Shown: piece by piece, positions 19,703-23,010 of the stretch | Numbering within the stretch: position 1 is the first letter of the stretch | Layout of the letters: every line of letters starts with the position of its first letter | Origin: Promethearchaeota archaeon | Lineage (GTDB): Archaea; Asgardarchaeota; Lokiarchaeia; Sigyniarchaeales; SOKP01 | Reading direction: 5' to 3' | NCBI GenBank assembly: GCA_019058295.1 | Contig: JAHPZI010000002.1 | Location: 156,176 to 183,645 of the forward strand | Length of the DNA: 27,470 nucleotides | The notes under the pieces: model-generated | Databases searched by the model: none | What the model saw: only the letters and a program-made list of their open reading frames with translations | What the model was told of the DNA's origin: nothing | Translations under genes and position numbers: made by a program

Positions 19703-20563
19703 ATGGAAGAGTTAAAATCAAAAGTAAGAAAGAAAGGACTCGAGTTAGGGATGGATTTAGTTGGTTTTACTGATCTATCTCGTCTTATTAATGCTCCAAA
19801 ACGATTTCACGCGACGGACTATTTACCAACAGCAAAATCAGTTATCGTTGTGGGTTGTCACTTTCCCGAAGGAAGCGTGGAAAACTGGGTAAAATCGCCT
19901 TCTTCATACCAGTATTATGGATATGCTCTAATAAATAAAGAATTAGGACGTGCTTGCTTGCATATTTCTAAATTGGTAGAAAAAGAGGGATATAGATGTT
20001 TTCCGATAGTTCCAACAGGACACTCAAAAGATTGGGATCATAAAAAGCAATTAGGAGAATTTTCCCATAGACATGCTGCTGTTGCCGCAGGTTTAGGTGA
20101 ATTTGGGTACAATAGACTTGTTATTACACCTCAATTTGGCAATCGGATACGATTTTGTTCTATAATTACCGACGCACCCTTTGAACCCGATCCTATGTAT
20201 GATGGACCTGCATTATGCGACCGATGTAAAAAATGTATACAAGCATGCCCTGGAGATTGTCTTGATGAGAGTAAGCTTTTAGAATGTCAAATCGGTGAAA
20301 AAAAGTATGAATATACCACTCTTTATCATTTTAAATGTTTTTACCACCTCCTGGGATTAGGACCGAAAACTGGAGCTGGTATTGATATCAAGGGACCTAA
20401 GAAAAAAGGAGAACTTTCACAACTTGGATTTTTAAAACGCTATATAAAAGCTTTTATTCTTCGATTTCAAAAATATCAGTATATTTCCCGTCAACAAAAC
20501 GCCGTGGATTGGTTTGAATTCTGTGGACGTTGCTTACATGTATGCAATCGACCATTAAAATAG
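19703..20563 (+). CDS. QueG/reductive dehalogenase-like cobalamin- and Fe-S-binding protein
   Basis: SHRHAAVAAGLGEFG, TPQFGNRIRF..IITD, CDRCKKCIQACP and C-terminal CGRCLHVC. Confidence 0.85.
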   Translation: MEELKSKVRKKGLELGMDLVGFTDLSRLINAPKRFHATDYLPTAKSVIVVGCHFPEGSVENWVKSPSSYQYYGYALINKELGRACLHISKLVEKEGYRCFPIVPTGHSKDWDHKKQLGEFSHRHAAVAAGLGEFGYNRLVITPQFGNRIRFCSIITDAPFEPDPMYDGPALCDRCKKCIQACPGDCLDESKLLECQIGEKKYEYTTLYHFKCFYHLLGLGPKTGAGIDIKGPKKKGELSQLGFLKRYIKAFILRFQKYQYISRQQNAVDWFEFCGRCLHVCNRPLK

Positions 20564-20709
20564 CTCAATTTAATAATTAAAGAAAAATAAAAATGAAGGT
20601 GCCCAAAAAAGGCCAGTTTAAATTAATAATTGAAATTTATTATCTAAATTGAATTAGACATAATTATCCTTTGAAAAATAAATCTAAGATTGATTTATTT
20701 CTAAATCAT

Positions 20710-20756
20710 AAAAAAAAAGAAAATTTAAAAAAAAATTTTATAAAAAAAATAAAAAA
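20710..20756 (-). terminator. Oligo-T tracts downstream of actin (archaeal-type terminator candidate)
   Basis: Several T5-T9 runs on the minus strand beginning about 40 nt after the restored actin stop (TAG 20800-20798). Confidence 0.45.
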
Positions 20757-20797
20757 TTATATATATTAAGGCATTTATCTCGGTTCTAAAAGCATCC

Positions 20798-22004
20798 CTA
20801 GAAGCAACGATGTATAACTTGAGGCCCCATCTCTTTGTATTCGTGAAGTTGGTAAAATCTTCCAACTTTTTCGCGACGAGTCACCCACATTTTTCACGAT
20901 TCAAGCGTTCTCGCTTGAAACTCTATGAAATGTTTTGAGTGACGAGAGAATTGAGCCGCCTATCCATACGGAATACATACGTTCTGGTGGTGCAATAATC
21001 TTTACATCAACAGACTCAGGGATTTGTTCTTTTATTTCCTTGGTCAATCTTTCTTTAATGCCTGGGAACATAGTAGAACCTCCAGAGAGCACTATATTGC
21101 TGTAGAGATCTCTTCTTAGGTCGACATCACACTCGGAAATAGCGCCTACGATAACATCATCTAAAGGCTCTAATTCTTTCCCGATTACTGATGGATTAAA
21201 TAAGCATTCAGGGCCTAGAAATCTTTCTACACCTACGTTAATTGTTTCACCATCAGGAAGCATGTAGCTCTTTTCCATTCCAGCTACTTTCTTGCTAAGC
21301 ATCATCTCCTTTTCAGGATCAATCGCTACATAACAAAGCTTCTCTTTGATGTCTCTAACTATTTCTTTCTCTGCCGAAGTAGTAAATGAATATCCTTTTT
21401 GTCTGAGTAATCTTTGTAAATATGTCGTTATATCTCTACCTGCTAGGTCTATTCTTTGGATGGCGTGACTTAAGGCGAAACCCTCGAAGATTGGTACAAC
21501 GTGGGAAACACCATCACCAATATCAATAACGCATCCAGTAGTACGACCAGAAGCATATAAAGACAATACCGCTTGCATAGCAACGTATAATGCTGGAGTG
21601 TTAAACGTCTCAAACATTATTTCAGCCATTTTTTCTCTGTTTGGCCTTGGATTTAATGGAGCTTCGGTTAAAAGTACTGGATGTTCACTAGGATCAATGC
21701 GCAAATCGGTGTAAAATGTGTAATGCCAGATCTTTTCCATTGCTGTCCAATCTTCAATGATACCATGCTCTACAGGGAACATTAGTTTTAAAACACCTTT
21801 GAGTTGCATTGCTTCTTCTCCAATGTAATACTCACGGGTATAATGTTCGACATCAGTCATTATGCTTTCATACTTAGGATAACCAATTAACGTTGGAAAT
21901 ACGGATCGAGGTTGATCCTCACCGGCAAATCCATTTTTAGAAATACCTGTACCATTGTCAACCACTAAGGCCTTAGCATTTAAAAAGCTTTCATCTTCTG
22001 CCAT
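20798..22004 (-). CDS. Asgard actin (Lokiactin), three exons: join(22004..20923,20891..20870,20839..20798) gives 381 aa
   Basis: Actin motifs [60 protein letters not shown] and [13 protein letters not shown]. The ORF track ends aberrantly in VSSENA*. The missing actin C-terminus [20 protein letters not shown] lies just downstream in another frame, interrupted by two hairpin inserts. Confidence 0.95.
20840..20869 (-). other. Putative BHB-type mRNA intron 2 in actin (30 nt, in-frame)
   Basis: Minus strand: GT CGCG AA^A AAGTTGG AAGATTTTA CCAACTT CACG AA^T AC. It has a 7-bp inner stem, a 4-bp helix CGCG/CACG (one C.A mismatch), two 3-nt bulges and outer pairs GU/AC. Excision gives CGC GAA TAC (R-E-Y). 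Confidence 0.75.
20892..20922 (-). other. Putative BHB-type mRNA intron 1 in actin (31 nt, frameshifting, contains in-frame TGA)
   Basis: Minus strand: ACATT TCAT AG^A GTTTCAAGCG AGAA CGCTTGAATC GTGA AA^A ATGT. It has a perfect 8-bp inner stem, a 4-bp helix UCAU/GUGA and bulges AGA and AAA. Excision gives CAT AGA ATG TGG (H-R-M-W). Confidence 0.85.
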
Positions 22005-22076
22005 TTTTCAATTTCAACTCATATTTTATTAATATTTTTTAATTTCGGTTAATATCGTGGAATCTAAGATCCCTTG

Positions 22077-22092
22077 GTCAATTTAAATTGAC
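22077..22092. promoter_or_regulatory. Perfect 16-bp palindrome upstream of actin
   Basis: GTCAATTTAAATTGAC, about 70 bp upstream of the actin ATG in the divergent intergenic region. Confidence 0.4.
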
Positions 22093-22359
22093 AATTTTTC
22101 AATCCATAAATTCTTTTTGAATTGACATTTATTTTTTTTATTATTATCCATATATTTGTTTTTTAATTAAAAAACCAATAATTATCGATAATTTGTTCTA
22201 AATAAAAAATTAAATAATTAATAAAACTAAATCTTTATAAATTTTTTTTAAACCATAATGTAAAGATTGAGATTTTTATAAATTCATTAAAAAAAAAGAA
22301 TTTTTATTTATAGATTTGGTATGATAGTAGCCTAATGACGTATAATTTCATTAGTCTTT

Positions 22360-22470: not shown

Positions 22471-23010
22471 ATGAAGTTTGATAATTTTTTTCAAGCCGCT
22501 CGTATATTGAAATACATATTAATCAACCCTAATTGCACCATCCCTGAGATCAGAGACTATTTTAATGTGAAACGCTCTAATCCACCAAGCACCGAAGAAA
22601 AGAATATTTATAAACTAATCTCATATCTTGATAATTCTGGTTTTATAGTTAAGAAAAATAGTGCTGAAATTTTACCCAGAGGTGCACATTATTCTCTTCA
22701 AGGTACTCAAAAGGGATCAGACACTATTAAAAAATGTACAAAATGCTTCTCTGATATTCCACTTAATTTTGCTTTTGAAAACTTTGATTTAAGTGAAAAA
22801 GATAAGACTAAAATTGAAGAGTTATCGACAGATTTTTCGAGATTTTCTTACGAGATTCTTAATAGTTTAATGCAAGGATTGCTTGATGAATTACCTTTAG
22901 ATACGAGACGGTTCCTCCGCTCAAAACGACCAAGAATAAATAAAATCATCGAAAAATACCATCAACGCATTCAAGATAAGATTTCAAATATCATTGATTC
23001 TTTAACTTAA
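22471..23010 (+). CDS. Winged helix-turn-helix protein, putative transcriptional regulator
   Basis: 'ILKYILINPNCTIPEIRDYF...IYKLISYLDNSGFIVK...YSLQGTQKG' follows a wHTH pattern; helical C-terminus. Confidence 0.65.
   Translation: MKFDNFFQAARILKYILINPNCTIPEIRDYFNVKRSNPPSTEEKNIYKLISYLDNSGFIVKKNSAEILPRGAHYSLQGTQKGSDTIKKCTKCFSDIPLNFAFENFDLSEKDKTKIEELSTDFSRFSYEILNSLMQGLLDELPLDTRRFLRSKRPRINKIIEKYHQRIQDKISNIIDSLT

Follow-up and report, generated by a model that had tools for sequence, protein, structure and literature searches.

The window, by which we mean the whole analyzed stretch of 27,470 nucleotides, carries on its minus strand an actin gene (Lokiactin) that begins with an ATG at 22004 and matches the Pfam Actin family at E=1.8e-122. 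It is the sole eukaryote-like actin found in this Asgard archaeon's assembly, where no second close orthologue was found and the only other match is 38% identical. The gene is solitary, set between very A+T-rich spacers of ~470 nt upstream (next ORF at 22471) and ~235 nt downstream (regions 22005-22300 and 20560-20797). Its open reading frame of 367 amino acids is ended by a TGA at 20903-20901, and this truncated form is the one taken by gene callers. Past the end of this frame a second frame carries on and then reaches a stop. Since the two frames share no overlap between the TGA at 20903-20901 and a TGA at 20896-20894, no simple frameshift can join them. Excision of two segments, 20922-20892 (31 nt) and 20869-20840 (30 nt), yields a 381-aa protein identical to that of an uninterrupted same-genus orthologue, with which the product of the first exon shares 100% amino-acid identity over residues 1-362. 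The 146-nt region holding the inserts has a folding z of -3.9, a value equaled by none of 200 shuffles. With the two segments read as introns, the gene is divided as follows.

20923..22004, minus strand: Lokiactin exon 1, from the ATG to ...CAUAG; residues 1-360 plus bases 1 and 2 of the Arg361 codon
20892..20922, minus strand: putative intron 1, 31 nt; frame-shifting, contains the TGA that ends the 367-aa ORF
Helix UCAU 20928-20925 / GUGA 20897-20894, bulges AGA 20924-20922 and AAA 20893-20891, minus strand: predicted bulge-helix-bulge (BHB) motif of intron 1; inner helix of 10 pairs, one of them U.U
20870..20891, minus strand: micro-exon, 22 nt; last base of Arg361 and MWVTRRE
20840..20869, minus strand: putative intron 2, 30 nt; in frame and stop-free, 9-nt loop
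Helix CGCG 20875-20872 (exon) / CACG 20845-20842 (intron), bulges AAA 20871-20869 and AAU 20841-20839, minus strand: predicted BHB motif of intron 2
AAGUUGG 20868-20862 / CCAACUU 20852-20846, minus strand: inner helix of intron 2, 7 bp
20798..20839, minus strand: exon 3, 13 residues and TAG
20798..20946, minus strand: 3' segment of apparently separate history; 32.9% divergence from the same-genus orthologue versus 6.7% upstream

A protein alignment leaves each junction with 1 to 6 equivalent placements; the ambiguity is 1 nt at intron 1 and up to 4 nt at intron 2, where there is a CGAA repeat. The junctions were therefore read together with a BHB rule, in which the 4 exon bases before bulge 1 pair with the 4 intron bases before bulge 2, both bulges are 3 nt long, and the cut falls after bulge base 2. 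For intron 2 only the placement listed above obeys this rule. In all 7 of the actin inserts first compared, the rule-obeying placement is the one with 3 to 4 helix pairs, against an average of 1.6 in controls with the junction slid along the sequence, where 4 pairs occurred in 1 of 112 cases. Cuts made by the rule remove 31 and 30 nt from the gene and restore the exact protein sequence of the orthologue. The central helix has 4 of 4 pairs in intron 1 and 3 of 4 in intron 2, where the mismatch is C20873.A20844, C20873 being the third (wobble) base of a CGC codon for Arg. The 3' bases of the micro-exon provide the exon strand of the intron 2 central helix, and in the minimum-energy fold the micro-exon stretch UGGGUGAC pairs with GUCACUCA of exon 1, forming a distant 8-bp exon-exon helix at intron 1. 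At site 2, the position of intron 2, the outer exon-exon helix is absent or ~2 bp long in unconstrained folds, which corresponds to the relaxed HBh' form of the motif. Such relaxed HBh' motifs are cut only by broad-specificity endonucleases (PMC5829648).

An earlier, sequence-only reading had described a 30-nt insert with an AAGTTGG/CCAACTT stem 22 nt after the first one, the intervening micro-exon MWVTRRE, and a CGCG/CACG helix with a C.A mismatch at the wobble position of Arg CGC, and all of these are present in the sequence. Its lengths for three possible products (367, 391, and 381 aa) are right as well, as is its observation that intron 2 is in frame and free of stops. The proposal that this insert is a BHB-type intron defining a 22-nt micro-exon is upheld by the rule-obeying placement, by covariation, and by the exact orthologue protein obtained on its removal. 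The further suggestion that a synonymous CGT would perfect the helix is borne out by the relatives that carry CACG in the intron (L034 and L036), both of which have CGT, and by an RNA-derived contig (X1, below) that has CGT too.

The distribution of such inserts was examined in 41 related genomes and then in 161 genomes of the class, the actin gene being found in 142. Among these 142 genomes the gene is nearly always uninterrupted; at least 24 of 30 orthologues retrieved lack inserts, and intron 1 was found only in the genome studied here. Site 2 is occupied elsewhere. One genome (G015) has a 31-nt insert at exactly this site, and another (G017; L018) has a 33-nt insert there together with a 31-nt insert between the QV and IH residues of the protein. 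QV/IH is thus a third Lokiactin intron site, with 31-nt inserts in two genera (G017 and G021); its central helix is AAGU/GCUU in G017, with 4 pairs, and AGGU/GCUG in G021 (L006), with 3 pairs and an irregular inner hairpin. A fourth site lies between DWTA and MEKIW in G160 (minus strand; L031, G160:C140:4826-6389), where a 30-nt insert contains TAG and TGA in frame and forms a perfect BHB (helix GGCU/AGCU, bulges AUA/AUG, 9-bp inner stem) lying between two direct copies of GCTAT. When metagenome contigs were scanned with a degenerate pattern, four further distinct site-2 inserts came to light in five contigs, with lengths of 31, 31, 31, and 32 nt. Lokiactin therefore has at least 4 intron sites, and site 2 is filled in seven independent sequences (this one and six other lineages). 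All 11 actin inserts at the four sites have 3 to 4 central pairs at the register given by the rule; their bulges have A as the first base, and the inner hairpin directly adjoins bulge 1. A blastn-short search with the introns against the genome found no extra copies, so they do not belong to a high-copy repeat family.

The seven site-2 sequences, three of them from genomes and four from metagenome contigs, were compared over the 4 central-helix pairs and the first 4 inner-helix pairs. Helix cells are paired in 92.9% of cases. Shuffles give 73%, none of 500 reaching the observed value, and sliding the partner strand lowers the figure to 29-50%. Five of the 8 pairs have changed on both sides, and in the inner helix all 4 aligned pairs covary. 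The wobble base of the Arg codon and its partner in the intron form U-A (three times), C-G, and G.U combinations, and are mismatched in two genomes (C.A here and U.U in G015). The coding sequence on the far side of the inserts is constrained in its own right. Among the last 21 codons, past the first break, 9-14 differ between this gene and its nine compared relatives, all of them synonymously (0 non-synonymous), and the whole gene shows 91 synonymous and 0 non-synonymous differences from G007, the nearest sampled relative. The lack of non-synonymous differences downstream means that the translated frame is the one requiring removal of intron 1, and the codon differences indicate that this downstream frame is under purifying selection.

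Transcript evidence comes from four public runs that were compared with the gene, three of them RNA (X1, X2, and X3) and one probably DNA (X4). A contig of 234 nt from metatranscriptome X1, with a depth of 12.7, agrees with exon 1 without a mismatch as far as 20922 (183 of 183 bases) and then continues into the micro-exon and exon 3. It lacks both inserts, exactly at the predicted junctions. Within the micro-exon the contig has two synonymous differences from the window (ACT to ACC and CGC to CGT), and it must therefore come from a close strain, possibly one without introns in its DNA. A spliced transcript is nevertheless the likelier origin than an intron-less allele, because the unusual 3' sequence of the window is also present in the contig; this evidence is suggestive. 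The other three runs (X4, X2, and X3) gave no contig over 20794-20934 at 95% likeness, and no contig of any run spans the introns themselves. The exon 1/micro-exon junction that an intron-less DNA allele would have was looked for in JGI metagenome contigs by exact matching, and 0 matches came back, a weak negative. Eight public contigs encode the exact 381-aa protein, all of them G007-like (95-100% identical to G007 and 90-93% to this gene). Over the last 63 nt these same contigs are merely 70-76% identical to the gene, and none is an intron-less twin of this allele. Among the contigs of the public collection, none encodes exactly the truncated product of 367 aa.

The 3' end of the gene appears to have a history different from that of the rest. 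Relative to G007 the gene is 6.7% divergent up to 20946 (71/1058) and 32.9% divergent beyond it (28/85), this being the best breakpoint (Fisher p = 2e-11). It is also at this coordinate that a contig from RNA run X2, belonging to a G007-like strain, stops following the window. The jump in divergence, combined with this departure, suggests that the last 85 coding bases and both introns were imported together by recombination. The donor seems to have been another, unsampled lineage; the best match to the 3' segment is 88% identical (L022, from G016). Carriers of a site-2 intron are scattered across a tree of actin DNA with poor support (34-80%), a tree that cannot decide whether the site-2 intron arose once, long ago, and was then lost many times or whether it spread laterally.

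The genome contains components of a machinery that could remove such introns. Two EndA paralogues (PF01974) of ~200 aa each are present, in the regions of G000 C1:121142 and C26:58847. For one of them the best match is to the chain-B EndA subunits of PDB entries 3p1z, 3ajv, and 2zyz, which we take to be the catalytic subunits of crenarchaeal heterotetramers, and the other is divergent. The presence of two paralogues agrees with the assignment of Asgard EndA to the broad-specificity (alpha-beta)2 type (PMC5829648). A search for RtcB in this assembly, which is 79% complete and consists of 30 contigs, found none; of 8 same-genus genomes 7 have it, among them all 5 that are at least 90% complete. 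In two same-genus genomes the RtcB gene itself contains a 29-nt canonical BHB insert (L062, G002:C3:15900-16110; L063, G006:C13:33370-33580), with helix UUGG/CCAA, bulges AUA/AAA, and a 9-bp inner stem, and its excision restores ...PGGVGYDINCGCR. RtcB, the ligase required for such splicing, would itself require splicing in those two genomes.

Other genes of the genome are interrupted in a comparable manner. ARAGORN identified introns in 10 of 44 tRNA genes, several of them 28-31 nt long. The argG gene has an in-frame TGA inside its Pfam match, within a 30-nt strict BHB insert whose excision restores SGGLDTS, and the gene for uL11 has an in-frame TAA and a 30-nt strict BHB insert (G000:C30:126695-126724) whose excision restores GPVVGPTG. 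In the gene for uS11 there is again an in-frame TAA and a 30-nt insert (G000:C1:158861-158890), where the best BHB would remove 31 nt and the protein needs removal of 30. This discrepancy in register means either that the cut rule is looser than assumed or that the motif is a different one. The uS11 and uL11 inserts are alike in sequence, both following AAAGUAA.UCA..UCGAAU..CUU.GU..AA. Within the window, a POR-gamma/iorB-like gene (ORF 17375-16857, minus strand) has an insert at ~17445-17400 that splits an N-terminal part (VKFNETD...AGIKRAFGSEI, then a stop) from the ORF beginning MHGLAQREG... As read, this insert is 28 nt long, with helix AAAU/AUUU and bulges AUA/AAU, and its excision gives ...GSEILHGLAQREG. 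It is a candidate for a third mRNA intron at most 3.6 kb from those of actin. The inserts in argG, uL11, uS11, and iorB imply that tRNA-type introns in mRNAs are a genome-wide feature. A genome-wide census based on the BHB motif and ORF rescue was uninformative, with 28 cases at the true register versus 30-44 in frame-shifted controls; its filters missed actin intron 1, and no intron number for the genome is drawn from it.

From these observations we consider it very probable that intron 2 is an archaeal BHB intron in the Lokiactin pre-mRNA, that intron 1 is another such intron 22 nt upstream, and that their splicing is constitutive and obligatory, giving the 381-aa actin. Locally, each intron would form a 4-bp exon/intron helix with 3-nt bulges on both strands, together with an inner hairpin. 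The tRNA-splicing endonuclease, probably an alpha-beta heterotetramer of the two EndA paralogues, would then cut after bulge base 2, and the exons would be joined by an RtcB-type ligase. The 22-nt micro-exon is perhaps held in place meanwhile by its 8-bp pairing with exon 1. Coincidence is the most likely reason why intron 2, in this genome, keeps the frame and contains no stop. Several points count against splicing as the explanation: the weak or absent outer helix, the C.A mismatch, the absence of RtcB from the 79% complete assembly, and the origin of the X1 contig from a different strain.

The in-frame, stop-free nature of intron 2 had earlier led to the idea of alternative actin isoforms, in which a poorly spliced intron 2 would be retained under regulation to give a Lokiactin of 391 aa whose C-terminal helix carries 10 additional residues, an addition that would tune the binding of profilin or gelsolin. 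If true, this would be a lineage-specific isoform produced by tRNA-type splicing in an archaeon, with a 10-residue insertion by the profilin-binding face in a fraction of transcripts. The central helix is indeed weakened in this genome, solely by a change at the exon wobble position (CGU to CGC), and the 33-nt site-2 insert of G017 is likewise in frame and stop-free. Retention is nonetheless improbable. The site-2 inserts are 30, 31, 33, 31, 31, 31, and 32 nt long, so that 5 of 7 would shift the frame, and the peptides encoded by the two in-frame ones are unrelated (the 10 residues of this genome versus TERDQRISRRE in G017). At 30.7% G+C the chance that an insert is in frame and stop-free is ~0.14, or ~1 in 7 (~44% of 10-codon stretches are stop-free, and a third of lengths keep the frame), and at such a rate no selection for a retained form is visible. 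The insertion point presumably corresponds to E361/Y362 of eukaryotic actin, inside a C-terminal helix, which also counts against retention, as does the lack of the intron in the sole RNA contig across the region. The conditions under which the earlier reading would have given up the intron did not arise: no relative has the 10-aa insertion as protein without a hairpin, and one RNA contig does skip 20869-20840. Movement of BHB introns between Lokiactin alleles within a recombining 3' cassette, with a breakpoint near 20946, is more likely than a retained isoform.

Inserts could also be absent from the protein if they stayed in the mRNA and ribosomes hopped over the hairpins, as in the programmed translational bypassing of phage T4 gene 60. 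Short hairpin inserts within an essential-looking ORF would suit this process, and in this genome GAA occurs both before intron 2 and at its end. These would-be take-off and landing codons vary among relatives, however, being GAA/GAU in G015 and L037 and GAG/GAA in L034, and intron 1 lacks a matching pair altogether (AGA versus AAA). Conservation and covariation are seen instead in the helix and bulge geometry of the BHB, and an RNA-derived contig lacks the inserts, which makes bypassing very unlikely. We give equally little credence to a broken or altered gene, whether a pseudogene with two hairpin insertions or a genuine protein with a 10-aa insertion after some other correction of the frame. 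The annotated ORF does stop at 367 aa, a product that no public contig encodes exactly. Against such a gene stand the 0 non-synonymous versus 9-14 synonymous codon differences past the break, the lack of another close orthologue in the assembly beyond the 38% match, the non-overlapping frames that a simple frameshift cannot join, and the similar interruption of the essential genes uL11, uS11, and argG. Least probable of all, with hardly any chance of being correct, is an assembly or sequencing artefact in which the inserts are absent from the organism's DNA. This is a metagenome assembly of 30 contigs and 79% completeness, and no run's contig covers the introns. Yet related inserts occur at site 2 in two other genomes and as four distinct sequences from five independent metagenome contigs, other genomes hold inserts at two further sites, and a structured insert obeying the BHB rule is unlike the product of misassembly.

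No paper treating lokiactin together with an intron was found in the literature searched, and a search for BHB motifs or the endonuclease in Asgard mRNA returned solely studies of tRNA introns (PMC11291895; bioRxiv 10.64898/2026.10.13.758758), papers on cbf5 (PMC2738675), and endonuclease structures. In this literature an archaeal protein-gene BHB intron is documented for crenarchaeal cbf5 alone. The cbf5 pre-mRNA intron of Crenarchaeota (Aeropyrum, Sulfolobales, and Desulfurococcales; Watanabe 2002; Yoshinari 2006; Yokobori 2009, PMC2738675) is likewise a short intron in coding sequence with a BHB fold, depends on a hetero-oligomeric endonuclease, and has a patchy distribution shaped by gain and loss. 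The introns described here differ in belonging to another phylum (Asgard, Lokiarchaeia-like) and to another gene, one for a eukaryotic signature protein, and their splicing is a prediction. There are also two introns in one mRNA, separated by a 22-nt micro-exon, four sites across lineages, and many other interrupted genes in the same genome.

The motif, the cut rule, and the size range are shared with archaeal tRNA introns, including the multi-intron and non-canonical-position ones of Thermoproteales and Asgard (Marck and Grosjean 2003; PMC11291895; bioRxiv 10.64898/2026.10.13.758758), as is the relaxed HBh' form tolerated by the (alpha-beta)2 EndA (PMC5829648). Here, in contrast, the host is an mRNA, which lacks a tRNA body that could keep the exon pieces together. 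The reading frame also puts a constraint on the exon side of the motif, and it is for this reason that the codon wobble base covaries with the intron. Splicing of HAC1/XBP1 by IRE1 and a tRNA ligase (RtcB in animals) resembles the present case in the tiny intron with stem-loops (26 nt in XBP1), the non-spliceosomal endonuclease, and the rejoining by a tRNA ligase. Removal of that intron alters the C-terminal frame, making it the known precedent for the idea of a regulated isoform. The endonuclease and the motif are different ones, however, and HAC1/XBP1 splicing is stress-regulated, whereas here there is no sign of regulation, and in most lineages keeping the intron would do harm. The bypassed segments of phage T4 gene 60 and the byp elements of Magnusiomyces mitochondria are also short hairpin inserts (27-55 nt) in ORFs that are missing from the protein. 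They need matching take-off and landing codons and remain in the mRNA, whereas in Lokiactin these codons are unconserved and the BHB geometry is conserved.

If this interpretation is correct, the mRNA for the actin of this archaeon appears to require two splicing events by the tRNA-splicing machinery. Gene callers truncate genes of this kind, as they do here at 367 aa, and systematic errors can therefore be expected in Asgard proteomes and in inventories of protein presence and absence. The locus offers a compact system for asking how exon pieces of 22 nt stay together without a tRNA body or a spliceosome, how coding constraint co-evolves with an intron when a wobble base faces an intron base, and how introns spread, since the same site is occupied in several genera and the 3' cassette is apparently recombinant. 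Although these introns are not spliceosomal, they bear on the question of which interrupted genes the archaeal ancestor of eukaryotes had.
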